A stretch of 64,000 nt of DNA from an uncultured Hyphomicrobiales bacterium (GTDB lineage: Bacteria > Pseudomonadota > Alphaproteobacteria > Rhizobiales > Phreatobacteraceae). The stretch lies in assembly GCA_964587395.1 (NCBI GenBank), contig CAZPMD010000009.1, positions 1,507-65,506 of the forward strand, written 5' to 3'. Of this stretch, positions 28,613 through 54,933 are shown in pieces (position 1 is the stretch's first letter; every line of letters begins with the position of its first letter). The position numbers and the translations under genes are program-made. The notes below the pieces were generated by a model. The model saw only the letters and a program-made list of their open reading frames with translations, searched no databases and was not told the DNA's origin.

Positions 28613-28638
28613 GGAACCGCCGGCCTGTTGCGAGCGTT
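28613..28638 (+). promoter_or_regulatory. EcfG-type promoter, exact GGAAC-N17-CGTT
   Basis: cgGGAACcgccggcctgttgcgagCGTTg. The -10 element ends 34 nt before ATG 28673. Confidence 0.6.
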
Positions 28639-28672
28639 GTTCCCCTGACAACGCAACCGAAGGAGACGTGTC

Positions 28673-28759
28673 ATGGGCCTTGGACGTGGTGCTCTCTTGT
28701 GGCTTCTCGGCATTCCCCTGCCGATCATCATCTTGCTGGCCATCTTCTGGGGCAATTGA
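28673..28759 (+). CDS. 28-aa hydrophobic peptide (MGLGRGALLWLLGIPLPIIILLAIFWGN); not in the ORF track
   Basis: ATG preceded by AAGGAGACGTGTC. One TM-like segment. An EcfG-type promoter lies immediately upstream and a hairpin downstream. Confidence 0.5.
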   Translation: MGLGRGALLWLLGIPLPIIILLAIFWGN

Positions 28760-28797
28760 TCAGGCGTAGCGAAGCCCGTCAGCGACAGGCGTGAAGA

Positions 28798-30652: not shown

Positions 30653-30826
30653 TCAGGCGCGGCGTAGCAGGCCGGCGACGACCGAGACGACGAACAGAAC
30701 GATCGCCACCCAGAACAGCATCTGCGCGCCGCCCATGGCCGTTCCGGCGACGCCGCCGAAGCCGAGGAAGGCCGCGACGAGCGCGACGACGAGAAAAACG
30801 ACGGCCCAGTGCAGAAGGGTACCCAT
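30653..30826 (-). CDS. DUF1328/YtjA-like small membrane protein (57 aa)
   Basis: C-terminal part of ORF 30653..31246(-): [57 protein letters not shown]. The FLGFGG...A motif is typical of the UPF0391 family. Confidence 0.75.
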
Positions 30827-30893: not shown

Positions 30894-30918
30894 AACGTCG
30901 TCGCCCGACCCAGGTTCC
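30894..30918 (-). promoter_or_regulatory. EcfG-type promoter, exact GGAAC-N16-CGTT (minus strand)
   Basis: Plus strand AACGtcgtcgcccgacccagGTTCC. 67 nt upstream of the DUF1328 ATG 30826. Confidence 0.6.
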
Positions 30919-31144
30919 CTTCAAGGCGGACGGAACTTTCTGCAGGGTCGTGGCGTTTGGGCCATCGCGGGCGCGTCCGGGAATGGACGCCAGTCGGCAT
31001 GCACGGAGTCGGAGAGACGAGACATGACGACTGATCGCCCGCCCCAAGCGGCTGCATACCGCTTACCCGATCGCGTGCCCGCCACGCCGGTCTGCCAGAA
31101 CGGCAGGCGCATCGCGACGTCGCCTGACCAGTCAAAGCGTTGCC

Positions 31145-33640
31145 ATGAGTGACGGCCGCCCCGTGGCGGAGAGGAGCGGGCAGGTCCCGCCACCGCATAC
31201 GCAGGTGCAACGGCAGGACGACGGCGACGAACGCAGGCGGCTTCATGCGCTGCGGGTGCGCCTGCTGCTGCTCGTCGGCGGCATGGCCATCCCGTTGCTG
31301 GTGCTCGCCCTCGGAGCCGTGTGGCAGGCGAACCGCAGCGAGCGGGCGCGGATGGAGACGCGCCTTGTCGAGCAGGCCCGGGCGATCGCCGCCAGCGTCG
31401 ACGGCGAGATGAAACAGGCCGAGGTCTATCTGCGGGCACTGGCCTCATCGCCCTCGCTAGCCAGCGGTGACTGGCTGTCAGTTTACCAGCAGGCGACGAG
31501 GTCGACCCGGCGTGGCACCTTCGTGGCCATTCTGGACGAGCACGGGCGGCGGCTCCTCAACACCTACTTTCCCGTCGGCGCGGGCGGCGTCAGCCTTACC
31601 CAGACGCGGGGCATCGACATCGCCCGTCAGGCGCTGGGCGAGGATCGGCTGGCGATTTCCGGCATCCTGACAGGCGACGCCATTGGCGAATCGGCGGTAG
31701 TGGCCGCGTTGGGAGCAGCGACGCGCTCGGGCCAACGGGTGGTGGTCGCGCTCATCATTCCGTCTGCCGTACTTGCCGGAGCATTGCAGGCGCAAAACCT
31801 GCCAGCCGAGTGGATCTCGGCCATCCTCGACGCCGATGGTCTCGTCACGGCGCGGTCCCGCGACAGCGCGCGCTTCGTCGGAACGCAGGCGATCGCGCCG
31901 GTCCGCCAGGTCCTGGCCACGCAGGCGAGCGGGCTGATCCATGCCCGGACCGTGGAGAATCTGACGGCGAGTCTTGCCGTTGCCCGCGCGCCGGAAAGTC
32001 GGTTCGCGGCGGTCATTGCAATTCCGGAAGCGGTGTTCGGGCGCAGTTTCGGCTCGATGCTCGGGCCGGTCGCCCTGATCGGCATCGGTCTCGTTCTCGC
32101 TGCCATGACCATCGCCATGCTGGCCTCGACCCGGATCCTCGCCGCCGTGCGCCGCGGCTATGCGGAAGAGCGCAGCCTCCGCGACGAGGTGACGGAAAAC
32201 CTGCGTGTCGTGGACGCCGAGCTGCAGCGGAGCGAGCGCCGCTTCCAGACCATCGCCGACGCGATGCCGCAGTTGGTCTGGTCGACGCTGCCCGACGGCT
32301 ACCACGACTATTTCAACCAGCGCTGGTACGAGTTCACGGGGATGACGCCCGGCTCGACCATGGGCGAGGTGTGGAACGATCTGCTCCACCCTGACGACCG
32401 GGCGCGCGCAGCCAGGCGCTGGCAGAATTCGCTCGACACCGGCGAGCCCTACGAGATCGAGTACCGGTTCAAGTCGGCCGATGGTGCCTATCGCTGGTTC
32501 ATCGGCCGCGCCATGCCGATCCGTGACCGCTCGGGGCGGATCGAACGCTGGTTCGGGACCTGCACCGACATTCACGACAAGAAGCTGGCGGAAGAGGCGC
32601 TGGTTGCGGCGCAGGGCCAGCTCAAGGCCCGCGTGGCGGAGCTCGCGCAGGAGAAGGCCCGCCTTGAGCGGCTGATGATCTCGGCGCCGAACCTCATCTT
32701 CATCAACGACCTGAAACGGGGGCGGAACGCCTACATCAACCCGCAGGTCTTCGAGGCACTGGGCTACGGCCCCGCCGAGCTGACGGGACGACCGCTCAAG
32801 GCGCTCGGCGAGCTGGTTCATCCAGAGGACCGCCGGCGCGTCGCCGGGTTCGTCGCGCAGATTCGCCGGGTGGCCGATGGCGAGGTGCGCGAGATCGAAC
32901 ACCGCATGCGCCATGCCGACGGCTCCTATCGCTGGTTCCTGTTCCGGGAGACGCCGTTCCAGCGCGATGCGGCCGGCCAGGTGACGCAGGTCCTCGGTAC
33001 GGCGCTCGACATTGGCGCGCGCAAGCAGGCCGACGAGCGCCAGCAGATGCTGATCCGCGAGTTGCATCACCGGGTGAAGAACATTCTCGCCACCGTGCAG
33101 GCGATCGCGTCGGCGACCGGGCGGTCGTCCCGCTCGTTCGAGGCGTTCCGGCAGGACTTCTCCGAAAGGCTGGTGTCGCTCGGGCGTACCCATTCACTGC
33201 TCACCCGCGAGGCCTGGGCCGGCGCCGGACTGCGCGACATCCTGGAGAGTGAACTCGCTCCCTATCTCGACCCGGCGGACGGGCGGGTTGTGATCGACGG
33301 CCCCGCCCTGGTGATCCCGCGCGACATGACGGTGCCGGTCGGCATGGCGATCCACGAATTGACGACCAATGCGGTGAAATATGGCGCGCTGTCGGTGCCC
33401 GCGGGGCACGTCGACGTCACGATCGAGAGCGACGGGGCGGTGCCGGAGCCCCGCATGACCCTGGTATGGCGCGAGAGCGGCGGGCCGCGGGTCGAGCCAC
33501 CGCAGCGCAAGGGTTTCGGCACGCTGCTGCTCAACCGGTTGCTCGCCTCGCAGCTCGGTGGCGAGGTGGCTATCGACTATCGGCCCGAAGGGGTCGTGGC
33601 GCGCCTGGACGTCGTGCTGCGCAAGGACGATCTGCGCTGA
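31145..33640 (+). CDS. Membrane sensor histidine kinase: periplasmic sensor domain, two PAS domains, HWE/HisKA_2 kinase core
   Basis: 831 aa. TM segments around [20 protein letters not shown] and [23 protein letters not shown] regions ([24 protein letters not shown]). H-box [32 protein letters not shown]. Confidence 0.85.
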
Positions 33641-33753: not shown

Positions 33754-34113
33754 ATGCCCACTCCCTCAGGCCATACCCGAGCCATCGTCGCCTCGCGCGT
33801 CACCGGCACCAGCGTCTATAATCCGCAGGGTGAGAAGATCGGCCACGTCGAGGACATCGTTCTCGACAAGATGTCCGACAAGGTGATGTTCGCCGTTCTC
33901 GGCTTCGGCGGTTTCCTCGGCATCGGCGAGCGCTATCACGCCATGCCCTGGTCCATGCTCGACTACGACAAGGAGCGCGGCGGCTATGTCGTGTCCCTCG
34001 CCAGGGAGGTGCTGGAGAAGGCCCCGTCCTACGAGCTCAACGACCTTCTCAAGCAGGACGGCGCCGGCCAGGGTCCCTCGCTCGACTACTATGCGAAGTA
34101 CAGCGTCCACTGA
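33754..34113 (+). CDS. PRC-barrel domain protein (cytoplasmic, 119 aa)
   Basis: VTGTSVYNPQGEKIGHVEDIVLDKMSDKVMFAVLGFGGFLGIGERYHAMPW is a typical PRC-barrel sequence. Confidence 0.8.
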   Translation: MPTPSGHTRAIVASRVTGTSVYNPQGEKIGHVEDIVLDKMSDKVMFAVLGFGGFLGIGERYHAMPWSMLDYDKERGGYVVSLAREVLEKAPSYELNDLLKQDGAGQGPSLDYYAKYSVH

Positions 34114-34165
34114 CCCGCGGCGGCGGTGCGACCGTCCGTCGGTCCTCCCTCTTCCGTTTTCCGAG

Positions 34166-34192
34166 ACGGCGGCCCGCAAGGCCGCCGTTTTG
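34166..34192 (+). terminator. Rho-independent terminator after the PRC-barrel gene
   Basis: ACGGCGGCC-cgcaa-GGCCGCCGT followed by TTTT. Confidence 0.7.
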
Positions 34193-34398
34193 GCGTGCGG
34201 CGCCTAACGAAAGCCAAGCCGATGCAGGAAGAAGTTCCGGCTGCGGGAAGTCGTTCCCGCGAGCACCGCCCGGCGGTCCCGAACTGCGAGGCGCATCCGT
34301 GGAAGATCTGTTCACCAGCGTTCATCTGCTGGCTATCGCGGCCATCGCCTTCGCCGCCCATACTCTCTCCACGGGATGAGGGAGACCCGGGAACTGCA

Positions 34399-35193
34399 AT
34401 GCGTCCGGCGCCCCGGCGGCGCCGCATCATGGTCCCGATGAACGCCTCCTCCGCGGCCTGTGCGGCAGTGGCGATCGTTCTTGCCGCCTCGGGCGTCGGC
34501 ACAGTGGCCGGAGCCCAGTCATTGCCCTCCAGGGCTCCCTTGCCACAAAGCCGGCCTCAGGCCGCCTCACCGCCGGCGGTGGCACCGCAGGCACCTCCGC
34601 TCCCGTCTCCCCGTTCCACGACCCGCTCTCCGGCCGTTGCGGCGTCGGCGTGCCAGGCAAGGCTCGCCGTGACCGGTGTCCGCTTCGCATCAGTCGCGGC
34701 AACGGACCCGCGGGTGGACTGTGCGATCGAGGATCCGGTGCAACTCGACAGCATGGCAACGGATGGCGGCGAGGTCCGCTGGCCCGACCGGCCGATCGTG
34801 AGCTGTTCCTTTGCCGGCATGCTCGCCGACTTCACCCGCGACGTTGCAGAGCCCCTCGCCCGCGCCACGACCGGCCGGGCCATCGCCGCCTTCGGCACCG
34901 GCCCGGGTTTCGCCTGCCGGCCGCGCAACAGGGTCGAGGGGGGCCAGATGAGCGCCCACGGCCGCGGGCTTGCCATCGACATTGCCTGGTTCGAGTTCGC
35001 CGGCGGGCATCGCGAGACTGTCGAGGCGCCGGGAGACGAGAAGGTTGCACGCCTCATCCACGCCTTGCGCCGGTCCGCTTGCGGCTGGTTCACGACGGTT
35101 CTCGGACCCGGGTCGGATGCAGCCCATGTCGATCATCTCCACCTCGACGCGGAGCGCCGCGGGCAGCGTGGCGACAGCCGCCTGTGCCAGTAG
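34399..35193 (+). CDS. Extensin-like C-terminal domain protein (secreted, Pro/Ala-rich linker)
   Basis: ORF 34126..35193 trimmed to MRPAPRRRRIMVPMNASSAACAAVAIVLAASG. C-terminus ...MSAHGRGLAIDIAWFEF...GPGSDAAHVDHLHLD resembles the bacterial extensin-like_C family. Confidence 0.7.
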   Translation: MRPAPRRRRIMVPMNASSAACAAVAIVLAASGVGTVAGAQSLPSRAPLPQSRPQAASPPAVAPQAPPLPSPRSTTRSPAVAASACQARLAVTGVRFASVAATDPRVDCAIEDPVQLDSMATDGGEVRWPDRPIVSCSFAGMLADFTRDVAEPLARATTGRAIAAFGTGPGFACRPRNRVEGGQMSAHGRGLAIDIAWFEFAGGHRETVEAPGDEKVARLIHALRRSACGWFTTVLGPGSDAAHVDHLHLDAERRGQRGDSRLCQ

Positions 35194-35309: not shown

Positions 35310-35861
35310 TCAGGTGCGGGCGGGCGCGAAGGTCGGCATGTCCTGCAACTGCTTCTTCGTGCTCGTCACGAAGCCGACCAGCGTGCCGTCAGACATGCGC
35401 ATGAGCTTGATGTCGTTCAGGATCAGGGCGACGTTCTTCTCGCCGATGCCGAGGAAACCGCCGACGCCGAGGATGGCATGCGAGATGCGGCCGTCAGGAC
35501 CGATGACGAGATCGTCGATCGTGCCGATGGAGTCGTGGCGGTCACGCATGGTGCGCCACTGCTCGTCGCTCACCGGCGTCACGGCCATGGCGGGCGCGGC
35601 CGGGGTTGAGCCGGTGGTCATCGGTGCAGCCGTGCCCGTCGAGGCCTGGCCCGGCTTCGGCGCATAGACCGAGATGCCGACGATCTTGCCAGTGGTCAGC
35701 TGATGCGCGCCCATCTCCGTCGCTGCCGGGGTTGCCGGACGCATGGGCTGGGTCTGCACCGGAGAAGCCGGCTGCTGCGGCGTCGGTGCCGCCGTCTGGG
35801 CCATCACGCCGGTGGCGAGAAGGGTCGCGACGGATGCCGTCAAAAGAGTGGTCCTGATCAT
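35310..35861 (-). CDS. Secreted PRC-barrel domain protein with a Pro/Thr/Ala-rich N-terminal region
   Basis: ORF 35310..35975(-) trimmed to MIRTTLLTASVATLLATGVMAQ (CAGGAGGCAACTGCC SD). C-terminal IGTIDDLVIGPDGRISHAILGVGGFLGIGEKNVAL PRC-barrel motif. Confidence 0.75.
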   Translation of the reverse strand: MIRTTLLTASVATLLATGVMAQTAAPTPQQPASPVQTQPMRPATPAATEMGAHQLTTGKIVGISVYAPKPGQASTGTAAPMTTGSTPAAPAMAVTPVSDEQWRTMRDRHDSIGTIDDLVIGPDGRISHAILGVGGFLGIGEKNVALILNDIKLMRMSDGTLVGFVTSTKKQLQDMPTFAPART

Positions 35862-35942
35862 GGCAGTTGCCTCCTGTCTGGAAAACCAGCGCGATGGATG
35901 CCGCCTCAGGCAAGATCCGAAGCATCGCGCTGTTGCCATGAC

Positions 35943-35967
35943 AACTGTCCGGGCGGCCCGTTGTTCC
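35943..35967 (-). promoter_or_regulatory. Near-consensus EcfG-type promoter GGAAC-N16-AGTT (minus strand)
   Basis: Plus strand AACTgtccgggcggcccgttGTTCC. 81 nt upstream of ATG 35861. One mismatch in the -10 element (A for C). Confidence 0.35.
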
Positions 35968-36005
35968 GGCGGCAATCGTCGGATTCGGCCGGTGACGACA
36001 TGTAT

Positions 36006-36902
36006 TTAGCCGGCGTCACGAATATCGTTGATGGCCTGCCAGTGCTGCCGGCGGTACTCGGCCGACTGCGGGAAGCGCTCGCCTTCCACCTCCTCGGTGA
36101 TCACGGTGAAGCGCGCCAGGGTATGCGGGCCGAAGGAATTGACGAAGGGCACGTCCGCCGCGTCACGTCCCCGTGCCACGACGATCCGGCCAATCCTAGG
36201 CCGGTTGTGCCGGGCATCGAAGGCGTACCAGGTTCCGTCGAGATAGACTTCGAACCAGGCGCTGAAATCCATGGGATTGGGATCCACCGGCACGCCGATG
36301 TCGCCGAGATAGCCGGTGCAGTAGCGGGCTGGAATGTTGAGGCAGCGACACAGGGTAACGGCGAGATGGGCGAAGTCCCGGCAGACGCCGGCACGCTCCT
36401 GCAGGGCCTCGGCGGCGGTGCGGGTGTGGCGGGCCGCCATGTAATCGAAGCGGATATGGCCATTCACGAAGTCGCAGACGGCCTGGACCTGCTCCCAGCC
36501 AGGACGCAGACCTGAAAAATTGTTCCAGGCAACCGACATCAGGCTGTCGGTCTCGCAATAGCGGCTGCCCAGCAGAAAACTCAGCGTCTCCGGTGGGAGC
36601 GCGTCGGGGGGCATGACCGTCGCCCAGGGCGCCACGGGATCGGGAAAGCCGGAATCGTGGATCTTCCCTTCGGCCGAGAGGCGCACGCCGCCTGCCGGAA
36701 CGGTGATGCGCCGGCAGATGTTGCCGAAGCCGTCGATATAGATCTCCGTCGGGCAGGGCGCCCCCGTCGCGAGCGAAGACGCGGCCATGATGTCAGGTTC
36801 AGAGATGTCGGTACGCCGGTCGGGATGGACGTCGAGCATCAGGATCGCCGGCAGGGTCTGGTCGCAGACGATCTCGATGTCGTAGCCGTAGCGGATATGC
36901 AT
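36006..36902 (-). CDS. Transglutaminase-like (Bact_transglu_N + transglutaminase core) family protein, copy 1; Ser at the expected catalytic His position
   Basis: ORF 36006..36932(-). ATG 36902 has a GAAGGAG SD. MHIRYGYDIEIVCDQ N-terminal domain. Core GVCRDFAHL ... DFSAWFEVYLDGTWYAFDARHN. Confidence 0.8.
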   Translation of the reverse strand: MHIRYGYDIEIVCDQTLPAILMLDVHPDRRTDISEPDIMAASSLATGAPCPTEIYIDGFGNICRRITVPAGGVRLSAEGKIHDSGFPDPVAPWATVMPPDALPPETLSFLLGSRYCETDSLMSVAWNNFSGLRPGWEQVQAVCDFVNGHIRFDYMAARHTRTAAEALQERAGVCRDFAHLAVTLCRCLNIPARYCTGYLGDIGVPVDPNPMDFSAWFEVYLDGTWYAFDARHNRPRIGRIVVARGRDAADVPFVNSFGPHTLARFTVITEEVEGERFPQSAEYRRQHWQAINDIRDAG

Positions 36903-36974
36903 CGGTGGTCTCCTTCGCAGGGATGCGGACATCCGGCCGCATCCGCCGGGCGCGGCAGCTGATCATGATCGGTG

Positions 36975-36999
36975 AACGCCACGCTTGGCCAGCGGTTCC
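36975..36999 (-). promoter_or_regulatory. EcfG-type promoter, exact GGAAC-N16-CGTT (minus strand)
   Basis: Plus strand AACGccacgcttggccagcgGTTCC. 72 nt upstream of ATG 36902. Confidence 0.6.
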
Positions 37000-37234
37000 T
37001 TGCTCGCAGGTGAGCATTCCGCGCGATCAGAGAAAGGTCCGCTGTGTCAGGTCGCGGTCGTACCGGGCGGCGCTCCGTTCGGTGAGATGCGGGTTATCGA
37101 GGGTCGGCGGCCGGCCGAGCCGCGGGCAGGCGTGGCACCAGCGGTGGGTGGTGCCGGGCAGCGTCCTATTCGCGATCATGGGTCCCCTCGGCCTGCGTCC
37201 GCCGGAAAATATGCTGGCGCGACGATCCGCGCAG

Positions 37235-37259
37235 GGAACTCGCGGGCCGCGGTCGCGTT
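37235..37259 (+). promoter_or_regulatory. EcfG-type promoter, exact GGAAC-N16-CGTT
   Basis: cagGGAACtcgcgggccgcggtcgCGTTc. 86 nt upstream of ATG 37346. Back-to-back with the 36975-36999 promoter. Confidence 0.6.
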
Positions 37260-37345
37260 CCGTCCCCTGGCTCTCCTGATGCATTCCGCTGCCGCCGGCG
37301 CGGTGTGGCAGGCCGGGCAAGCTCCACCCGCGCGGAAACCTCTCC

Positions 37346-39151
37346 ATGTCCTCTTCCGAACCCGATGTCGTCGACCGGCCCTACCGGTCGCGATCGCGAT
37401 CCTTCCTGCGCATGGCAACCGGCTTCTGGACGGGGTTCTCCGGGGTACGGGCCTGGCTGCTGACCATCGTGGTTCTCGGCTTCGCCTTCGCGCAGATTGC
37501 GGCGCAGGTCGGCATCAACAGCTGGAACCGCATGTTCTTCGACGCGCTCGAGAAGAAGGAGATCGGCGACGTCGTCACCGCCATCAGCCTCCTGCCGCTG
37601 CTCGTTGGCGTTGCGGCGATCACCATGTCCGGGCTCGTCGTCTCGCGCATGCTGCTGCAGGTGCGTTGGCGCGAGTGGGTCACGCACCGGCTGGCGGGAT
37701 GGTGGATCGCCGACCAGCGCTACTATCGCCTGGGCTTCCTGGCCACGGAGCATTCGGCACCGGAGTTCCGTATCGCCGAGGACGTGCGCATCTCCACCGA
37801 GCCGCTGGTGGAATTCGCCATCGGACTGATATCGGCCCTGGTCACAGCTCTCACCTTCGCGGCCATCCTCTGGACCGTGGCCGGATCCATCACCTTCGAG
37901 ATCGCCGGACGGACGGCCCTCATCCCCGCCTATATGGCGATCGCCGCGGTTCTCTATGCCGTCATCGCCTCGACGACCGCCTACTATGTCGGTCGCGCGC
38001 TGGTGGGAAGGATCGCCACCAAGAACGAGACGGAGGCGCTGTTCCGCGCCGAGATGACACGGCTGCGCGAGAATGCCGAGAGCATCGCGCTGATCAAGGG
38101 CGACGCGGACGAGCGGTCCTCGGTCAAGGACACATATTCAAACGTCGTCCGGGCTTGGATGGCGGTCGTCCGCCGGCAGGGCTTCATCGCGCTGGTGCTC
38201 AACACCAATGGCGCGCTCTTTCCAATCGTGCCGCTGCTGCTGGTGGCGCCGAAATACCTGTCGGGCGAACTGACGCTCGGCGCCGTCATGCAGGTCGCCG
38301 CCGCCTTCAGCGCCGTGCAGGCGGCGCTCATCTGGTTCGTCGACAATTTCGTGCGCCTGTCCGAATGGTACGCCTCGGTGGTGCGCGTCGACGAGTTCGT
38401 CGAGACCCTGGAAGAGGTCGATATCGGCACGATCATGGAGGACGAGCAGCAGATCAGGCTAGGCGAGAGCGATGACGACACCATCCAGATCGACAATCTG
38501 TCGCTCGCCCACCGCAACGGCCGGGTCGTCATCGACGATGCGTCCATCCGCATCCAGCCCGGAGAAAAGATCCTCATCGCCGGGGAGAGCGGCACCGGCA
38601 AGAGCACGTTCATCCGCGCGCTCGCGGGGCTCTGGCCCTGGGGCTCGGGGAGCATCGCCTTCCCGCGCAACACCCCTCATGCCTTCGTGCCGCAGAAGCC
38701 CTACCTGCCGCGCGGCACATTGAAGGACACGCTGATCTACCCCGAAAGCGGGGCTCAACTGGACGAGGCGGTCATCCTGCAGGCCATGGAGCGCTGCGGG
38801 CTCGGTTATCTGGCGAAGCGCCTCAACGAGGAGGACGACTGGGATCGCGTCCTGTCCGGCGGCGAGCGCCAGCGCGTCGCCTTCTGCCGCCTGCTCATCC
38901 ACAAGCCGCCGATCATCATCATGGACGAGGCGACCGCAGCGCTCGACGAGGGCAGCCAGGACAGCCTGCTCTCCCTGTTCGAGAACGAGCTCGCCGCCTC
39001 GACGCTGATCAGCGTCGGACATCGTCCCGGGCTCGAGAGATTCCACGACCGCAAGATCACCCTCGTGCGGCGCCCCGCCGGTGCACGCATGCAGTCGACG
39101 CCGATCCGCAAGTCGATCTGGCGGCTTCTCAGCGGGGGCGAGGTGGCCTGA
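37346..39151 (+). CDS. Fused permease/ATPase ABC half-transporter of the ABCD / YddA / SbmA-BacA-related type
   Basis: 601 aa. N-terminal 5-6 TM region of ABC_membrane_2 style (NSWNRMFFDALEKK, QRYYRL). C-terminal NBD with GESGTGKST, LSGGERQRVAFCRLL and IIIMDEATAALD. Confidence 0.85.
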   Translation: MSSSEPDVVDRPYRSRSRSFLRMATGFWTGFSGVRAWLLTIVVLGFAFAQIAAQVGINSWNRMFFDALEKKEIGDVVTAISLLPLLVGVAAITMSGLVVSRMLLQVRWREWVTHRLAGWWIADQRYYRLGFLATEHSAPEFRIAEDVRISTEPLVEFAIGLISALVTALTFAAILWTVAGSITFEIAGRTALIPAYMAIAAVLYAVIASTTAYYVGRALVGRIATKNETEALFRAEMTRLRENAESIALIKGDADERSSVKDTYSNVVRAWMAVVRRQGFIALVLNTNGALFPIVPLLLVAPKYLSGELTLGAVMQVAAAFSAVQAALIWFVDNFVRLSEWYASVVRVDEFVETLEEVDIGTIMEDEQQIRLGESDDDTIQIDNLSLAHRNGRVVIDDASIRIQPGEKILIAGESGTGKSTFIRALAGLWPWGSGSIAFPRNTPHAFVPQKPYLPRGTLKDTLIYPESGAQLDEAVILQAMERCGLGYLAKRLNEEDDWDRVLSGGERQRVAFCRLLIHKPPIIIMDEATAALDEGSQDSLLSLFENELAASTLISVGHRPGLERFHDRKITLVRRPAGARMQSTPIRKSIWRLLSGGEVA

Positions 39152-39195
39152 CAGAAAGCGGAGTCGTTTCCTGGCGAGGGGCGGGAACCATAGCG

Positions 39196-39220
39196 GGAAC
39201 CATTCCACGCGAGGAGCGTT
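39196..39220 (+). promoter_or_regulatory. EcfG-type promoter, exact GGAAC-N16-CGTT, with a tandemly duplicated -35 region
   Basis: gcgGGAACcattccacgcgaggagCGTTg, preceded by the direct repeat gcgggaaccat (39181-39191 and 39193-39203). Confidence 0.55.
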
Positions 39221-39226
39221 GATGGA

Positions 39227-39297
39227 GCGATCATCGCACGTCCCTTCCCGCGATGTGGACCTCTCCACTCAAGCCGCCTCTGGCGGCTTCTTTTTTT
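39227..39297 (+). ncRNA. Candidate EcfG-dependent small RNA or 5' attenuator (about 70 nt, ends approximate)
   Basis: Directly downstream of the 39196-39220 promoter there is a C/U-rich tract (cccttccc). A hairpin GTGGA-CCTC-TCCAC follows at 39254-39267, then an intrinsic terminator at 39270-39297. The next gene's ATG is at 39354. Confidence 0.3.
39270..39297 (+). terminator. Rho-independent terminator-like hairpin with a U-tract
   Basis: AAGCCGCC-tct-GGCGGCTT followed by CTTTTTTT. Lies 119 nt after the ABC transporter stop and 57 nt before the next ATG. Confidence 0.65.
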
Positions 39298-39353
39298 CAC
39301 CAGGTCCGGGTGCGAAGCTGTGTCGAAGCGCGCCCCGGAGTTTGACGGCCACG

Positions 39354-40235
39354 ATGGATCTGCACCTGCGTCACGTCACGACCTATCAGTATGCGGGGCC
39401 GGTCCAGTTCGGCCCCCACCGGCTGATGCTTCGCCCGCGCGACAGCTTCGACCTGCGCATCCTCGATACGCAGCTGGACATCTTCCCGAACGCCGAGCTG
39501 CACTGGTCGCATGACGTCTATGGCAACCCGATCTGCGTCGCGACCTTCGCCGGGATGGCGGACAGGCTCGAGATCACGTCGGGCCTCGTGCTGCGCCGCT
39601 ATGCCTCCGCCTTTCCGCGCGCCCATACGATGGCCGGTGCAGCCTTCGCTCCCCACTACACCGATGGCGAACGCATCGTGCTGCAGCCCTTCCTGGTCCC
39701 CGCCAGCGGCGACGAGGGCGGGGTGCTCGCCGCCTGGACCGCAGCGGCCCTTTCAGGCGAAGCGCAGGACCTCGATCCGCTGAGCCGCCTGTCGCGGGCC
39801 ATCCATGCCGGCTTCGGCTACGCGGCGCGCTACGAGGAGGGCACCCAGACGCCGGCGCAGACGCTGAACCTGAGGTCCGGCTCCTGCCGGGATCTCGCCT
39901 GGCTGTTCATCGAGGCGGTCAGGCGGCGCGGCTATGCGGCGCGCTTCGTGACCGGCTATCTGCACGACGGCCGCGCCGCCGACCCGTCGTACCGCTCGGT
40001 CGCCGGCCTGACCCATGCCTGGGCCGAGGTCTTCATTCCCGGCGACGGCTGGGTGGAGTTCGATCCCACCAACGCGCTCGTCGCCGACCCGCATCTGATC
40101 CGTGTCGCGGTGGCGCGGGTGCCATGGGATGCGTCGCCTGTGTCGGGCAGCTTCATCGGCCCGGTCGGCGCCCTCATCAGCCTGTCCGTCGGCGTCGATA
40201 TCGCGCCGACGGAGAGCTACGCGAGCGTCGCCTGA
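39354..40235 (+). CDS. Transglutaminase-like (Bact_transglu_N + transglutaminase core) family protein, copy 2, with an intact Cys-His-Asp pattern
   Basis: ORF 39081..40235 trimmed to MDLHLRHVTTYQYAGPVQFGPHRLMLRP. Core GSCRDLAWL ... THAWAEVFIPGDGWVEFDPTN. Confidence 0.8.
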   Translation: MDLHLRHVTTYQYAGPVQFGPHRLMLRPRDSFDLRILDTQLDIFPNAELHWSHDVYGNPICVATFAGMADRLEITSGLVLRRYASAFPRAHTMAGAAFAPHYTDGERIVLQPFLVPASGDEGGVLAAWTAAALSGEAQDLDPLSRLSRAIHAGFGYAARYEEGTQTPAQTLNLRSGSCRDLAWLFIEAVRRRGYAARFVTGYLHDGRAADPSYRSVAGLTHAWAEVFIPGDGWVEFDPTNALVADPHLIRVAVARVPWDASPVSGSFIGPVGALISLSVGVDIAPTESYASVA

Positions 40236-40242
40236 GCAGGCA

Positions 40243-41895
40243 TCAGAGAGGGATGGTCCAGCGCCCAGAGCTGGCGCCGTCCGGCCACTCCGTCTGCGTC
40301 GCGCCGATCTGGCGCAGCAGGCCGACAGCAACCTTGGTGTTGACGGCGCCGGCGCGGCGGTGATCCGTGGCGACGTCGAGCGTCAGGCTGTCGCCGCCCG
40401 ATCCGGTGCTGATCCTGACCGACACGCTGTCCGCCTCATCCTCCTGCAGCGCATGCGACGCAAGCTCGACGACGAGCAGTCCCAGGGGAATGGCGCGATC
40501 GACCACCAGGGCGGCATCGTCCGGAGCGGTGGCGGTGATCCAGGGGCGGCCGGGCTGGAGCAGGCCGTTGAGCATGGCCGCCACCTCGTCGAGGAAGGGC
40601 TTCAGTTCGACGGGCCGCATCTCGCCCTGGGCGAGGGCGTGGCGATAGGCGATCGACAGCACGTGGACCTTCGCCTCGACCGCTGCCAGGACCGGTCGGT
40701 GTTCCGTGCCGTGCTGTCGGCGCGCCAGGCTGAGATAGCTCTGGATCACCTGAAGGCTGTTCTTCACGCGATGATGCAGTTCGCGCACGAGGTGGCGGTT
40801 GGCGCCGATCGTCTGGTTGAGCCGCTCCACGCGGCCAGCCTGGTCGATGACCAGCGTGTTGAAGGCCTCTGAGACCCGGCGGATGTCCTGGGGCATGGCG
40901 GGATCGACCGGCGCGAGTTTGGCCTCGTGCGAGCTTCGCGCCACCGCCGCCGCCTCGATGCCGCGGATCCAGCGCACGATGTTGGCGTCGATGGCCAGCG
41001 AGTAGACCGCGAAGAGCACCATCAGGGTGACAAGCGGTGTGAGAAGAAGCGCGATGAACTGGAGGAACGCGGCCCGCTCGGCCTGCTGGTCGAAACGCGC
41101 GAGGACATAGAGGTCCGGCTCGGCGACCCGCTGCATGCCGTAGGTCGCCGTCTGTCCTGCACGGCTGACGGCCTCCCAGCGCTGCAACTCGCCGGTGTTG
41201 CGCCCCTCCAGGGGAAGCCAACTCATGTCGGATTCGTCCGCGCCACGCGCCGCCACGACGTCGGAACTGCCGCGGACGATGCCGACGATGACACCGGGGT
41301 TGACCACACCCAGTTCGAAGGCGCGATCCATGATGACGGAATCGACGAGCAGCAGGGATTCGAGAACCTGGGTCTGCGGACCGCTGTTGCGGCGCGCATA
41401 GATGACCATGAACCGGCGCTGCCCGATCTGCGTGACACCGTAGCTGGCCTCGGCGAGATCGCTGCCGATCCACGTGCTGCTGCGGCTGCGGGTCCGATAG
41501 TCCTCGACGATACCGACGAGCACGGCCTCGCTGAGCTCCGCGGTCTGTCCCGCCATGCATCCGGGACGATCCCCCGCGCTGAGCGCGATGGCGCTGATCC
41601 CGATGTTGTCGCCGACGATGCGCCGGGCGATGGCGCGGCACTGCTCGGGCGAGGCATCCGTGGCCGCGACGCTCGCCGTCGCGGCCAGGAGCACCCTGAG
41701 CGATTCCCGGAACCAGACGCGGGTCCGGACCGCGAAGTTTCCCACCGTCTGCGACTGCGACGTCTCGATCGAGGAGAGGACCGAGCGATAGGTCGCGGTC
41801 GCCGTCACCGCCGTGATGACGGCGATGGGCAGGATCACCAGGACCATCAGGGCGAGGAGGCGGCCCCGGACGGTGCGGAATACGGTGACATTCAT
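40243..41895 (-). CDS. Membrane HWE/HisKA_2 sensor histidine kinase encoded in the nepR-ecfG operon (PhyK-like position)
   Basis: ORF 40243..42390(-) trimmed to MNVTVFRTVRGRLLALMVLVILPIAVI (ATG 41895, 5 nt after the ecfG stop). Two TM segments flank a periplasmic domain. H-box [20 protein letters not shown]. Confidence 0.85.
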   Translation of the reverse strand: MNVTVFRTVRGRLLALMVLVILPIAVITAVTATATYRSVLSSIETSQSQTVGNFAVRTRVWFRESLRVLLAATASVAATDASPEQCRAIARRIVGDNIGISAIALSAGDRPGCMAGQTAELSEAVLVGIVEDYRTRSRSSTWIGSDLAEASYGVTQIGQRRFMVIYARRNSGPQTQVLESLLLVDSVIMDRAFELGVVNPGVIVGIVRGSSDVVAARGADESDMSWLPLEGRNTGELQRWEAVSRAGQTATYGMQRVAEPDLYVLARFDQQAERAAFLQFIALLLTPLVTLMVLFAVYSLAIDANIVRWIRGIEAAAVARSSHEAKLAPVDPAMPQDIRRVSEAFNTLVIDQAGRVERLNQTIGANRHLVRELHHRVKNSLQVIQSYLSLARRQHGTEHRPVLAAVEAKVHVLSIAYRHALAQGEMRPVELKPFLDEVAAMLNGLLQPGRPWITATAPDDAALVVDRAIPLGLLVVELASHALQEDEADSVSVRISTGSGGDSLTLDVATDHRRAGAVNTKVAVGLLRQIGATQTEWPDGASSGRWTIPL

Positions 41896-41900
41896 CGCGA

Positions 41901-42461
41901 TCAGGTACGCGCCATGTCTGCAGGGGACTGGTGGATGACAGCGGCGGTCCGGCGATCCGGCCCGATCTCGTCGACGCCGGTGATGCCCAGGAGATCGGCG
42001 AGCTTGGCGCGTGCGCGATTGACCCGGCTCTTGATCGTGCCGACGGCGACGCCGCAGATCTCCGCCGCCTCCTCGTAGGACAGGCCGCTGGCGCCGACCA
42101 TGATCAGCACCTCGCGATGTTCCTCCGAAAGCTTGGCGAGCGCCTTGCGGAAATCGGCGAGATCGAGCGCGCTTTCCTGTTCGCCCGACACGGTGAGGCG
42201 CTGGGCATAGGTTCCGTCGCTGTCCTGCACCTCGCGGCCACGCTTGCGGTAGAGCGAGTAGTAGGTGTTGCGCAGGATGGTGAACAGCCAGGCGCGCAGG
42301 CTCGTCCCCGGCTGGAACTTCTCGGAATTGCCCCAGGCCTTCAGCATGGTCTCCTGCACGAGGTCGTCGGCCTGCGTGACCGAGCCGCACAGGGAGACGC
42401 CGAAGGCGCGCAGGTTCGGCAACTCCGCAATCAGGCCTTCGCGGAACTCGTCACTGGGCAT
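41901..42461 (-). CDS. ecfG: ECF sigma factor EcfG (general stress response sigma)
   Basis: ORF 41901..42491(-). ATG 42461 is preceded by AAGGAGCGTCGCA. LVQETMLKAWGN (region 2) and LSYEEAAEICGVAVGTIKSRVNRAR (region 4). Immediately after nepR and divergent from phyR. Confidence 0.9.
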   Translation of the reverse strand: MPSDEFREGLIAELPNLRAFGVSLCGSVTQADDLVQETMLKAWGNSEKFQPGTSLRAWLFTILRNTYYSLYRKRGREVQDSDGTYAQRLTVSGEQESALDLADFRKALAKLSEEHREVLIMVGASGLSYEEAAEICGVAVGTIKSRVNRARAKLADLLGITGVDEIGPDRRTAAVIHQSPADMART

Positions 42462-42648
42462 TGCGACGCTCCTTGGCTTCGAGTTCGGCAAGGAGAACGA
42501 GGAAGCGATCGGGCATCGGCGCCTTGATGAGGTCGTCGTAATGGGCCTTCAGCGATTTGCCGATGGCCTCCTGGATGCGCGGGTCAAGGACGATGTCCCT
42601 GTCGTCGTCCTTCCGGTCCTTGTCGTTGTTGTCCCGAATCTCACCCAT
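42451..42648 (-). CDS. nepR: Anti-sigma factor NepR
   Basis: 65 aa. ...IQEAIGKSLKAHYDDLIKAPMPDRFLVLLAELEAKE matches the NepR core. Overlaps the ecfG start by 11 nt. Confidence 0.88.
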   Translation of the reverse strand: MGEIRDNNDKDRKDDDRDIVLDPRIQEAIGKSLKAHYDDLIKAPMPDRFLVLLAELEAKERRNAQ

Positions 42649-42697
42649 CGACCTCTCCTCGCGTACCTTTTGGAGGCGCGCACCTGATCCAACCCAG

Positions 42698-42722
42698 AAC
42701 GCCCCTTTCCGGCATTGGTTCC
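42698..42722 (-). promoter_or_regulatory. EcfG-type promoter, exact GGAAC-N16-CGTT (minus strand); autoregulatory promoter of nepR-ecfG
   Basis: Plus strand AACGcccctttccggcattgGTTCC. 49 nt upstream of the nepR ATG 42648. Confidence 0.7.
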
Positions 42723-42800: not shown

Positions 42801-43598
42801 ATGACCATTGCTGCGGAAATTGCCCCGCATCTCCCCTATCTGCGCCGCTTCGCCCGTGCCCTCAGCGGCACGCAGGCCGGCGGTGATTCCTATGTGCTGG
42901 CGACGCTCGAGACGCTGGTGGCCGATCCTTCCTCCTTCCCGAGAGACGTGTCCGCCCGCATCGCCTTGTATCGGATCTTCCTCAAGCTCTGGTCGTCCAT
43001 GCCAGTGAACATGTCGCAGCCGACGACCATGCTGGTTCGTGCCGGCGCTGTGGAGCGCAATCTCGAAGCGCTGACGCCGATCTCCCGGCAGGCGTTCCTG
43101 CTCAGGACGGTCGAAGGTTTCTCTGTGGAAGAAGTGGCCGGCGTCCTCAACGTTGACCTCGATCGGGCCGGAGCCCTCATCCAGCAGGCCGGACGCGAGA
43201 TCGCCGAACAGGTGGCGACCGACGTCCTCATCATCGAGGACGAACCGATCATCGCGCTCGACATCGAGACGCTGGTCCAGGAACTCGGCCACTCGGTCAC
43301 CGGCATCGCCCGGACCCACAAGGAGGCCGTCGCCCTCGTCGCGAAGAAGCGCCCGGGTCTCGTCCTCGCCGATATCCAACTGGCCGATGGTTCGTCAGGG
43401 CTGGAGGCGGTCGCGGAGATCCTGGAGAGCATCGACCTGCCGGTCATCTTCATCACGGCCTATCCGGAGCGCCTGCTCACCGGCGAGCGGCCGGAACCGG
43501 CCTTCCTGATCACCAAGCCGTTCCAGCCGGAGGCGGTCAAGGCGGCGATCAGCCAGGCGCTGTTCTTCGACCGCCGGTCGGAGCGGAAGGTGGCCTGA
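42801..43598 (+). CDS. phyR: PhyR anti-anti-sigma response regulator (sigma-like domain + receiver)
   Basis: 265 aa. N-terminal HLPYLRRFARALSG... ECF-sigma-like domain. C-terminal receiver VLIIEDEPIIALDI...LVLADIQLADGSSG...ITKPF. Confidence 0.92.
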   Translation: MTIAAEIAPHLPYLRRFARALSGTQAGGDSYVLATLETLVADPSSFPRDVSARIALYRIFLKLWSSMPVNMSQPTTMLVRAGAVERNLEALTPISRQAFLLRTVEGFSVEEVAGVLNVDLDRAGALIQQAGREIAEQVATDVLIIEDEPIIALDIETLVQELGHSVTGIARTHKEAVALVAKKRPGLVLADIQLADGSSGLEAVAEILESIDLPVIFITAYPERLLTGERPEPAFLITKPFQPEAVKAAISQALFFDRRSERKVA

Positions 43599-53481: not shown

Positions 53482-54933
53482 ATGACGACTGGTGAGACGA
53501 CTGCCGGCGCGAGCCGCCCGCGCTACGACATCGACGGGCTGAAGGCGAAGCTCGCGGGCATCAAGTCCGAGGATAATGCCAATCTCGTCCGCCAGAAGAG
53601 CCGCGACTTCTACTGGTACTCGCCGACGCTGAAGCGCCAGCTCGACCATGTCATCGGCGACATCATCGTCTCGCCGGTGAGCGAGCAGGAGGTGGTGCGC
53701 GTACTCGCCGCAGCCCATGATCTCGGCATCCCGGTGACGCCGCGCGGCACGGGCACCGGCAACTACGGCCAGGCCATGCCGCTGTCCGGCGGCATCGTTC
53801 TCGACCTCTCCGGCATGAACAAGATACTCACCGTGCAGCCGGGCCGCTTTGTGGCGGAAGCCGGCACCATCGTCGCCGAGATCGACAAGGTCGCCCGGCC
53901 GCAGGCGCAGGAGGTGCGCATGCATCCCTCGACCTATGCGACCGCCTCCATCGGCGGCTTCATCGCCGGCGGCTCCGGCGGCGTCGGGTCCATCACCTGG
54001 GGTGGCCTGCGCGATGCCGGCAACGTCATCAGCCTCAGGGTCGTCACCATGGAGGCGAGCCCGCGCGTGCTGCAATTGTCGGGCGACGACCTCGCCAAGG
54101 TCGCCCATGCCTACGGCACCAACGGCGTCATCACCGAGGTGGAGATGCCGCTCGGCCCTGCCTACCCCTGGGTCGATGTCTTCCTCGGCTTCGAGACCTT
54201 CGAGCGGGCCGCCGCCTTCGCCAACATGCTCGGCGAGCAGGACGGCATCGCCAAGAAGAACATCTCGGTCATCGCGGCGCCGGCGCCGCAGACCTATTTC
54301 CTGCGCCACCAGGACTACATGCCGCCGGGCCAGCACGTGGTTGTGGCGGTCCTCGCCGACTTCGCCGTGGATGCGGCGCTGAACCTCGCGGCCAAGGCGA
54401 AGGCGGAGCTGCTGCTGCGGTCTGACAAACTCTCTGACGAGGAGCGGCGCAAGCTGCCGCCCGGCTTCGAGCTGACCTGGAACCACACTACGCTGCGGGC
54501 CCTGAGGGTCGATCCGGCCATCACCTACCTGCAGGTGCTCTATCCCTTCCCGAACCAGGTCGCGCTCTCTGCTGCACTGGAGGAGCGGTTCGGCGACGAG
54601 ATGATCAGCCATCTCGAGTTCGTCCGCTTCGACGGCAAGGTCACCTGTTTCGGCCTGCCGATGGTGCGCTTCACCACGGAGGAGCGCCTCGAGGAGATCA
54701 TGAGGATCCACGAGGACATGGGAGCACCGATCTTCAACCCCCACCGCTACACGCTGGAGGAGGGCGGCATGAAGCAGACCGACGAGGTGCAACTCGCCTT
54801 CAAGAAGGAGGCCGATCCGCAAGGCCTGCTCAATCCCGGCAAGATGATCGCCTGGGAGGATCCGAGCTACGACTACAAGGCGGGCGGCACCTTCCTGTTC
54901 AAGGGGCTGGCGGGGGAAGGGGCCAAGGCGTGA
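53482..54933 (+). CDS. FAD-binding (PCMH/FAD_binding_4 type) oxidoreductase
   Basis: ORF 53413..54933 trimmed to ATG 53482 (GGAG upstream). IPVTPRGTGTGNYGQAMP FAD-binding motif. Confidence 0.75.
   Translation: MTTGETTAGASRPRYDIDGLKAKLAGIKSEDNANLVRQKSRDFYWYSPTLKRQLDHVIGDIIVSPVSEQEVVRVLAAAHDLGIPVTPRGTGTGNYGQAMPLSGGIVLDLSGMNKILTVQPGRFVAEAGTIVAEIDKVARPQAQEVRMHPSTYATASIGGFIAGGSGGVGSITWGGLRDAGNVISLRVVTMEASPRVLQLSGDDLAKVAHAYGTNGVITEVEMPLGPAYPWVDVFLGFETFERAAAFANMLGEQDGIAKKNISVIAAPAPQTYFLRHQDYMPPGQHVVVAVLADFAVDAALNLAAKAKAELLLRSDKLSDEERRKLPPGFELTWNHTTLRALRVDPAITYLQVLYPFPNQVALSAALEERFGDEMISHLEFVRFDGKVTCFGLPMVRFTTEERLEEIMRIHEDMGAPIFNPHRYTLEEGGMKQTDEVQLAFKKEADPQGLLNPGKMIAWEDPSYDYKAGGTFLFKGLAGEGAKA

Follow-up and report, generated by a model that had tools for sequence, protein, structure and literature searches.

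Positions 36006-40235 of a 64-kb stretch of DNA from an uncultured Hyphomicrobiales bacterium (the whole stretch is hereafter called the window) hold a gene for an ABC half-transporter flanked by genes for two transglutaminase-fold proteins, TG1 and TG2, next to the genes for the general stress response (GSR) regulators PhyR, NepR and EcfG. The region is less a dedicated three-gene module than was first proposed: It is probably one arm of an island of GSR genes that borders the phyR / nepR-ecfG-kinase core in Phreatobacter and in Bosea, and behind the third of its EcfG-type promoter motifs a conserved, terminator-ended short RNA is predicted, which we are somewhat inclined to regard as a trans-acting small RNA (sRNA). 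The window is high in GC (about 67%), its ABC protein shares 93% identity with that of Phreatobacter sp. HK31-P, and a contig from a metagenome-assembled genome (L001; related loci are referred to by such numbers) is nearly collinear with it; to judge by these matches, the source is a Phreatobacter species. The features of the region and of the adjoining core, with TMD and NBD standing for transmembrane and nucleotide-binding domain, are as follows:

36006..36902, minus strand: TG1, 298 aa; Pfam Transglut_core E=2.6e-21; no signal peptide
36975-36999, minus strand: TG1 EcfG-type motif GGAACCGCTGGCCAAGCGTGGCGTT, an exact GGAAC-N16-CGTT
37027..37179, minus strand: Crp/FNR in-frame deletion remnant of 50 codons, recognized by translation, with the N-terminus joined to the C-terminus
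37235-37259, plus strand: ABC-gene EcfG-type motif GGAACTCGCGGGCCGCGGTCGCGTT, 87 nt before the ATG
37346..39151, plus strand: ABC half-transporter, 601 aa; TMD of the ABC_membrane_2/SbmA_BacA type fused to an ABC_tran NBD (Pfam)
39196-39220, plus strand: third EcfG-type motif, before the short RNA and 45 nt past the ABC stop codon
39227..39298, plus strand: candidate GsrN-like sRNA, ~70-72 nt; start predicted, end set by the T-run
39232-39237 and 39250-39255, plus strand: arms of the RNA 5' hairpin (CAUCGC / GCGAUG), with the loop ACGUCCCUUCCC at 39238-39249
39271-39289, plus strand: intrinsic terminator with an 8-bp stem, then T7/U7 (terminator scan and fold)
39354..40235, plus strand: TG2, 293 aa; Pfam PF08379 3.3e-21 and PF01841 6.4e-19; no signal peptide
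40243..42722, minus strand: GSR core operon, comprising the motif at 42698-42722, nepR, ecfG and the kinase gene
~41868-40243, minus strand: HisKA_2/HWE kinase (Pfam)
42461-41901, minus strand: ecfG
42648-42451, minus strand: nepR (Pfam NepR)
42801-43598, plus strand: phyR, divergent from nepR-ecfG-kinase

EcfG-type promoter motifs cluster around the stress response core

When the GSR is switched on, stress kinases phosphorylate PhyR, phosphorylated PhyR sequesters NepR, and the EcfG that is thereby freed transcribes its promoters. The initial annotation had placed the three genes beside the nepR-ecfG-kinase operon, and both the Pfam matches and the divergent phyR gene bear this out. It had also reported three exact GGAAC-N16-CGTT motifs, which are present at 36975-36999, 37235-37259 and 39196-39220 and far exceed chance: The window contains six such sites where 0.31 are expected (none of 100 shuffles reached six), along with two more that have an N17 spacer and none with N15, and all eight of the N16 and N17 sites are intergenic, lie within 28.6-42.7 kb and point toward a downstream unit. 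Because six exact motifs stand against 0.31 expected and cluster around the GSR core, we take the original observation as confirmed. The region thus has the motif form (GGAAC-N16/17-CGTT) and the adjacent phyR, nepR, ecfG and HisKA_2/HWE kinase genes of a PhyR-NepR-EcfG regulon, with the dependence on EcfG read from the motifs alone.

Conservation of the motifs makes EcfG control of these genes very probable. Of 78 related loci, 56 have the ABC-gene motif at positions -260 to -30, where chance would give ~0.03 for each such interval, and the motif is kept even in 11 of the 26 loci where the ABC gene is not next to ecfG. All eight Phreatobacter loci with a divergent TG1 retain the TG1 motif, as do most of the co-directional ones, and the third motif has the same position in L001-L008 and corresponds in Bosea to the second of two motifs. 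Upstream of distant plasmid-borne ABC homologues (42-55% identity), EcfG motifs were not clearly conserved. Within the literature that could be searched, which did not extend to supplementary regulon tables, no paper ties transglutaminase-like or ExsE/ABCD-type ABC proteins to the GSR, and a search for transglutaminases together with EcfG, RpoE2, SigT or PhyR returned nothing relevant, CCNA_00166/00167 of the GsrN pull-down table having proved a coincidence of gene numbering, since the match is a metallophosphatase; the earlier statement that no pathway links the three families, or places them in the GSR, agrees with this.

The divergent spacer between TG1 and the ABC gene had been presented as a 443-bp region with back-to-back promoters. 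Its length and its motifs are as described, but the back-to-back layout is the product of a gene deletion, since the spacer holds the remnant of a Crp/FNR gene. The intact gene, as in L001 (7539-8297, minus strand), encodes 252 aa with cNMP_binding and HTH_Crp_2 domains and an N-terminal HRWCHACP cysteine motif, which the N-terminus of the remnant still includes. Divergently oriented from the ABC gene and about 70% conserved, the intact gene is found in over 40 loci of Bosea and Phreatobacter; the window and L005-L007 have lost it.

The recurring unit is the ABC gene with one transglutaminase-fold gene

We fetched 80 related loci by their ABC protein, of which 67 had enough flanking DNA to be informative, and the ABC gene was next to ecfG in 51 of these 67. 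The two groups of loci compare as follows:

ABC gene next to ecfG (51 loci): TG2 adjacent in 43, TG1 adjacent in 12, either in 48, both in 7
ABC gene not next to ecfG (16 loci): TG2 adjacent in 1, TG1 adjacent in 1, either in 2, both in 0

The recurring unit is thus the ABC gene beside the GSR core together with TG2 (43 of 51) or TG1 (12 of 51). The neighborhood comparison that the initial annotation had suggested did not extend the arrangement of the window to its relatives: The full transglutaminase-ABC-transglutaminase triad occurs in only 7 of the 51 GSR-linked loci and is limited to one Phreatobacter subclade, and the complete genomes of P. aquaticus and P. stygius have no triad. Most Bosea genomes have ABC-TG2 only, and in another clade TG1 is co-directional with the ABC gene and abuts or overlaps it behind a single upstream motif.

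This variability raises the question of whether there is a functional unit at all, since independent EcfG-regulon genes might simply have accreted beside the core, their adjacency reflecting shared regulation and nothing else. Gene content does vary around a constant ABC-GSR junction, and the surrounding genes, of kinds usual in the GSR, have unrelated functions (PRC-barrel, DUF1328, small hydrophobic peptides, HWE kinases). TG1 homologues elsewhere also stand behind EcfG-type motifs in quite different operons, and 14 of the 16 ABC copies off the GSR core have no transglutaminase gene beside them. On these last two grounds, the coupling of the transporter gene with the transglutaminase genes could be merely co-residence in the GSR island. 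However, loose accretion does not readily account for an ABC-TG2 adjacency that persists in 43 of 51 loci across two genera, with TG2 proteins ~57% identical, or for the clade in which TG1 and the ABC gene share an operon; because this persistence exceeds what loose accretion would leave, we consider accretion without any functional connection rather unlikely.

A candidate GsrN-like RNA lies between the ABC gene and TG2

The 134 nt that separate the third motif from the TG2 start codon are not a simple 5' untranslated region (UTR), because the predicted intrinsic terminator at 39271-39289, the only strong one on the plus strand of the region, lies between them. The reading of this motif as a plain TG2 promoter was thus too simple, in that a conserved short RNA ending at the terminator comes first. 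From its predicted start to the T-run, the RNA folds beyond shuffled controls (z=-3.3 to -3.75), and its sequence, including the hairpin arms, the loop and a second CU-rich stretch (ACCUCUCC), is conserved in 10 Phreatobacter loci; in L009, both hairpin arms carry a compensating 2-nt insertion.

In Bosea the spacer between the ABC gene and TG2 is longer and has two EcfG-type motifs, the first leading into an open reading frame (ORF) of ~92 aa with a single transmembrane segment and no Pfam match, and the second into a ~60-nt RNA that consists of a 4-6-bp hairpin with the loop (U)CCCCUC and a terminator and is followed by TG2. A MAFFT alignment of 16 Bosea copies showed changes on both sides in five of the six hairpin pairs, and the covariation score of the hairpin was 0.179, compared with 0.127 for shuffles (0 of 500 reached the observed value) and at most 0.073 for slid controls. 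The Bosea covariance model detects the Phreatobacter copies, including that of the window at E=2e-4, and because the model crosses genera in this way, the RNA elements of Bosea and Phreatobacter are homologous. In every version that has a C-rich tract, the tract is predicted to be unpaired.

Each of the two, RNA and TG2, also occurs without the other. In L022, a Phreatobacter locus that lacks TG2, a GGAAC-N16-TGTT motif, an RNA with CCUCCCCCCUCC (six consecutive cytosines) and a terminator directly abut the kinase gene, and in P. aquaticus the TG2 gene lies 7.6 kb away and has no promoter-RNA-terminator unit. Where the two do occur together, the layout is constant: All 48 TG2-bearing loci inspected share the order promoter, terminator, TG2, with 28-90 nt from terminator to ATG, and in L012 and L036 only 28-29 nt lie between the T-run and the ATG of TG2. 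We found no promoter-like site between the terminator and TG2 of the window (39299-39353), and as no promoter fits after the terminator, TG2 must be transcribed by read-through. The shared terminator also serves the ABC gene, and the RNA is therefore laid out as a 3'-UTR-embedded sRNA with its own promoter.

Two further observations concern this interval. In Bosea L024 (12300-12360), the promoter-short RNA-terminator unit is followed by an apparent remnant of the TG2 start (ATGTATCCGCGCATCCGCCA...), and TG2 appears to have been deleted recently from this locus. Bosea, P. aquaticus, P. stygius and other clades have, directly after the ABC gene, an ORF of 77-101 aa with one N-terminal transmembrane segment, no Pfam match and its own EcfG-type motif (L012 11894-12172; L064 11837-12142; L091 9890-10123; L092 9946-10185), which is absent from the window.

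GsrN-like RNAs have been predicted across Alphaproteobacteria, Bradyrhizobium and Rhodopseudomonas among them, from three features: a sigma-EcfG site, a position near ecfG-phyR and a C-rich loop exposed at the 5' end; BLASTn homology to GsrN itself is confined to Caulobacteraceae (Tien et al. 2018; PMC5869019). The window RNA has a near-consensus sigma-EcfG site directly upstream (39196-39220), and only TG2 and the kinase gene lie between its end at 39298 and the end of ecfG at 41901. Its C-rich 5' loop (ACGUCCCUUCCC) is exposed on a stem that covaries in Bosea, and such a loop is missing from ~20 truncated Bosea forms. With GsrN of Caulobacter crescentus it shares an EcfG-type promoter, a position ~2.6 kb from ecfG, a 5' hairpin with a C-rich loop and an intrinsic terminator, a likeness of layout in which homology of sequence is not expected. 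Unlike GsrN, its loop is mixed C/U (CCCUUCCC), it lies directly upstream of TG2, enclosed by the ABC stop codon and the shared terminator, and many of its Bosea copies are truncated and hairpin-less.

Other identities for the RNA were considered and set aside. Rfam scans, both broad and RNA-focused, returned no family at threshold. SuhB/MmgR (alpha-r8, RF00519) resembles the window RNA in its small hairpin, CU-rich single-stranded motif and terminator, and a weak cmscan alignment exists, but membership was rejected at 15.4 bits against a gathering score of 41, with hairpin pairs that are non-canonical in that alignment; SuhB is also LysR-controlled and largely GSR-independent (bioRxiv 10.64898/2025.12.09.693200). 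A small peptide product was ruled out, as the RNA has no ribosome-binding site (RBS) and the 93%-identical copy in L001 reads ATG-TAG.

Several observations weigh against a GsrN-type role. The RNA is almost always directly upstream of TG2, with L022 as the sole clean exception, and ~20 Bosea loci have a shorter form of 38-48 nt behind GGAAC-N16-CGTA that has no C-rich hairpin, so that a GsrN-like function cannot be universal. Within Phreatobacter, the hairpin shows conservation and G-U changes only and no covariation, although this comparison is uninformative because the sequence there is too conserved. Sites complementary to the C-rich loop are not enriched in the window (12, compared with 17 expected), 64 kb being too little for target prediction. 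A second TCCCTTCCC is found in the window at 54543, inside a coding region.

The same facts could be read to mean that the RNA acts in cis, as a 5' leader or attenuator of TG2: The EcfG promoter would then be that of TG2, and the terminator would keep TG2 low or dependent on antitermination. The constant promoter-short RNA-terminator-TG2 layout, which holds in all 48 loci and includes the hairpin-less ones, fits such a role, as does the lack of any other suitable promoter before TG2. However, we looked for an alternative antiterminator pairing in the folds and none was evident, a leader of this size would be very short for sensing a ligand, L022 has the unit without TG2 and P. aquaticus has TG2 without the unit, and the covarying hairpin presents a conserved loop, as the seed regions of sRNAs do. 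Together these points make an attenuator unlikely, and we continue to lean slightly toward a trans-acting sRNA.

The ABC half-transporter resembles ExsE-type proteins

The central gene had been described as a fused TMD-NBD half-transporter related to ABCD and SbmA-BacA proteins, which both Pfam (PF06472 3.2e-31; PF05992 7.4e-20; PF00005 6.7e-21) and a full-length match to Mycobacterium Rv1819c support. Rv1819c (6TQE) is the best solved relative (phmmer E=5e-77), followed by ABCD1 and ABCD4, and the NBD motifs are intact in the translation: Walker A GESGTGKST, signature LSGGERQR and Walker B IIIMDEATAALD. Among plasmid and chromid records, the protein is 42-45% identical to rhizobial ExsE-type proteins (E about 1e-140) and 55.6% identical to a Methylocystis protein. 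NCBIfam offered only sub-threshold families, and the PADLOC defense library yielded only generic NBD-level matches to the ABC protein, with no match to either TG1 or TG2.

Published work recognizes the following classes in this superfamily: SbmA/BacA, BclA (with which Mycobacterium BacA is grouped), ExsE and a "Bradyrhizobium homologous clade" whose function is unknown (PMC12003926). By its sequence, the window protein has the Rv1819c/ABCD fold and appears nearer to the ExsE type than to BacA/BclA, a placement based on a comparison of identities and E values. In architecture, fused TMD-NBD with ABC_membrane_2/SbmA_BacA and ABC_tran domains, it matches Rv1819c (6TQE/6TQF), BclA and ExsE alike, and like BclA it has no adjacent gene for a substrate-binding protein. 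It differs from all three in its EcfG motif and in its linkage to a gene for a Crp/FNR regulator, to a candidate sRNA and to transglutaminase-like genes, which are undescribed for those proteins.

BclA and BacA are peptide importers (PMC5567381), and a peptide-type substrate had been proposed for the window genes. ExsE of Phyllobacterium zundukense partly restored the gentamicin sensitivity of a bacA mutant but conferred little or no resistance to NCR247, and the ExsE class is described as related to long-chain fatty-acid transport (PMC12003926). With the apparent closeness of the ABC protein to this type, and no rescue of NCR-peptide phenotypes by the ExsE that was tested, the peptide idea is weakened.

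On a P. zundukense plasmid (L087; NZ_CP104972.1, 294430-306205), an ExsE-type homologue of the ABC protein lies beside EEP-family, UPF0104 and phospholipase-D-like genes. In composition, these neighbors are like the ybhP-clsB-ybhN operon of E. coli, a resemblance that hints at a lipid-related context.

TG1 and TG2 share a fold but not an active site

Both flanking proteins had been credited with the same two-domain architecture. Predicted structures agree, in that TG1 and TG2 each resemble 3ISR, a putative cysteine protease of Cytophaga hutchinsonii, in having an N-terminal beta-sandwich and a transglutaminase core, but Pfam finds Bact_transglu_N (PF08379) in TG2 only, whereas TG1 matches PF01841 alone and gives no PF08379 match even at E<=10. 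TG1, whose start at ATG 36902 follows an AGGAG RBS and agrees with homologue lengths, matches PDB entry 3ISR in sequence (E=5e-34), and its AlphaFold2 model (pLDDT 80) aligns with 3ISR over the full length at a TM-score of 0.77-0.81. The TG2 model is weaker (pLDDT 66), again with 3ISR as the best match (TM-score 0.61) and likewise along its whole length. NCBIfam has no specific family for either protein.

The supposed likeness of the two proteins does not extend to their catalytic residues. In the TG1 family (TG1 and its 120 closest homologues), Cys and Asp are each present in 121 of 121 members, but the column of the canonical catalytic His holds Ser in 88, Asn in 33 and His in none; TG1 itself has Ser there. 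A His three residues after the Asp (Asp+3) appears in 116 of the 121, including the window TG1. Placement of the His column was confirmed by hhalign profile-profile alignment and by alignment with 3ISR, which, unlike TG1, keeps the canonical His. On this pattern, the subfamily may have relocated a catalytic residue or may have become a pseudo-enzyme. TG2, with Bact_transglu_N and an intact Cys-His-Asp triad that is kept in 48 of 48 orthologues, corresponds to the COG1305 Bact_transglu_N proteins. To our knowledge, neither 3ISR nor any of these COG1305 transglutaminase-like proteins has a demonstrated activity.

TG1 homologues occur in several other settings. One in Bosea L081 (6001-8567) belongs to a PRC-TG1-DAGK_cat-PAP2 operon in which a PRC-barrel gene with an EcfG-type motif comes first, and L083 (6001-8598) has an extended island in the order TG1-DAGK-PAP2-Crp-ABC-small ORF-TG2-kinase. 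In both loci, stop/start overlaps couple the TG1 homologue translationally to a DAGK_cat/YegS-type lipid kinase and a PAP2 phosphatase. The L085 homologue is beside a Bact_transglu_N/DUF2126 giant and a CP_ATPgrasp/Alpha-E fusion, and P. stygius has a DAGK_cat gene near its island. A tblastn search of the window for CP-ATP-grasp/Alpha-E, DAGK_cat, PAP2 and the Bosea small transmembrane ORF found none of them, and the window thus differs from CP-ATP-grasp / Alpha-E / Anbu neighborhoods, having no such gene within its 64 kb.

These contexts suggest a role in the remodeling of envelope or lipids under stress, in which the ABC protein would move an acyl or lipid-linked compound and TG1 would serve as a Cys-dependent acyl-transfer or hydrolase partner. 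Relationship to the peroxisomal acyl-CoA transporters ABCD1-3, the 42-45% identity to a class linked to long-chain fatty-acid transport (PMC12003926), the gene neighbors in P. zundukense, the coupling of TG1 homologues to DAGK_cat and PAP2 in Bosea and in L083 (in the latter within the same island as the ABC gene and TG2) and the DAGK_cat gene near the P. stygius island all point in this direction. However, this support is all contextual, homologues of DAGK_cat and PAP2 are missing from the window, ExsE owes its lipid role to annotation by homology, matches of the transglutaminase fold to acyltransferases (NAT) are marginal, and TG2 has no lipid-related context, so that we regard lipid remodeling as quite unlikely. 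Less probable still is the original proposal, in which three genes with their own EcfG promoters would form a dedicated module for the import and covalent processing of a substrate of peptide or gamma-glutamyl type: The three exact and enriched motifs, the shared 3ISR-like fold of two apparently cytoplasmic proteins and the import of hydrophilic solutes by Rv1819c and of peptides by BclA and BacA (PMC5567381) favor it, but a triad that only 7 of 51 GSR-linked loci have and that P. aquaticus and P. stygius lack, a terminator and structured RNA between the third motif and TG2, the missing His of TG1 and the closeness of the ABC protein to an ExsE type with little or no NCR247 complementation (PMC12003926) make it improbable.

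Other stress-related genes of the island

The remaining EcfG-type motifs of the window precede the following units:

28613, plus strand: motif, then a 28-aa hydrophobic peptide
30894, minus strand: motif, then a DUF1328-like membrane protein
30932, plus strand: motif, then a PAS-HWE kinase
33690, plus strand: motif, then a PRC-barrel protein
42698, minus strand: motif, then the nepR operon

The first unit (28613-28760, plus strand) consists of GGAAC-N17-CGTT, an GAAGGAGA RBS and the peptide MGLGRGALLWLLGIPLPIIILLAIFWGN, is convergent with the 3' end of a PAS-HWE kinase gene, and has a counterpart in L074, where a similar peptide also stands behind an EcfG motif. The DUF1328-like small membrane protein (about 30653-30826, minus strand) follows the motif at 30894-30918, which is back-to-back with the N17 motif (30932-30957, plus strand) of the gene for the 831-aa PAS-HWE kinase (31145-33640). 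Two PRC-barrel genes (35310-35975, minus strand, and 33754-34113, plus strand) flank a gene for an extensin-like_C protein (34126-35193); the former lies 31 nt downstream of TG1 and may share its transcript, and its copy in L002 has an EcfG-type motif of its own.

A model for the region

We hold with good confidence the regulatory and architectural part of the following model, in which four units would be under EcfG-type control: the divergent TG1 gene, the ABC gene, the ~70-nt RNA and, by read-through, TG2. Under stress, EcfG would act on the promoters of TG1, the ABC gene and the short RNA. Of the transcripts begun at the third promoter, most would end at the terminator and yield the sRNA, whose C/U-rich loop would pair in trans with G-rich or Shine-Dalgarno-like sites, as that of GsrN does; a minority, from the sRNA promoter, the ABC promoter or both, would read through into TG2, giving a high ratio of sRNA to TG2. 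The ABC protein would act as a homodimer that carries a solute, hydrophilic or amphipathic, through the inner membrane, most likely into the cell, as is the case for Rv1819c, BclA and ExsE (gentamicin), and the cytoplasmic transglutaminase-fold proteins would act on its cargo or on the cellular targets of that cargo, with TG2 as an active Cys-His-Asp amidase or peptidase and TG1 as a non-canonical or non-catalytic partner. Direct biochemical coupling between the transporter and the transglutaminase-like proteins is proposed only tentatively. More speculative still, and in our view improbable, is that the ExsE/ABCD-like transporter, the His-less TG1 and TG2 form an unrecognized stress-induced pathway for the transport and processing of an acylated, lipid-linked or peptide substrate, wired to both EcfG and a Crp/FNR-type regulator, in which the C-rich RNA would be at once a GsrN-type trans regulator and the terminator gate for TG2.

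Implications for the general stress response

Parts of this picture are of kinds already known: GSR regulons are rich in unknown genes, and GsrN-like RNAs occur beside GSR loci. New are a candidate sRNA family, unannotated until now, in Phreatobacter and Bosea, an ExsE-like ABC gene whose linkage to the GSR core and to genes for 3ISR-like proteins persists, and, from its alignment, a His-less subfamily of transglutaminase-fold proteins. We know of no function for most genes of alphaproteobacterial general stress regulons, nor of a demonstrated bacterial function for the ExsE/ABCD-type ABC or the 3ISR-like transglutaminase-fold families. The pairing of the two gives them a shared context that narrows the search for a substrate, and the members of the TG1 subfamily would be either pseudo-enzymes or enzymes with a rearranged active site. 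The locus also teaches that a correct promoter motif does not identify its transcript. As a candidate locus-linked sRNA for Boseaceae and Phreatobacteraceae, the short RNA would carry the idea of GsrN-like regulation into a further part of the Hyphomicrobiales.

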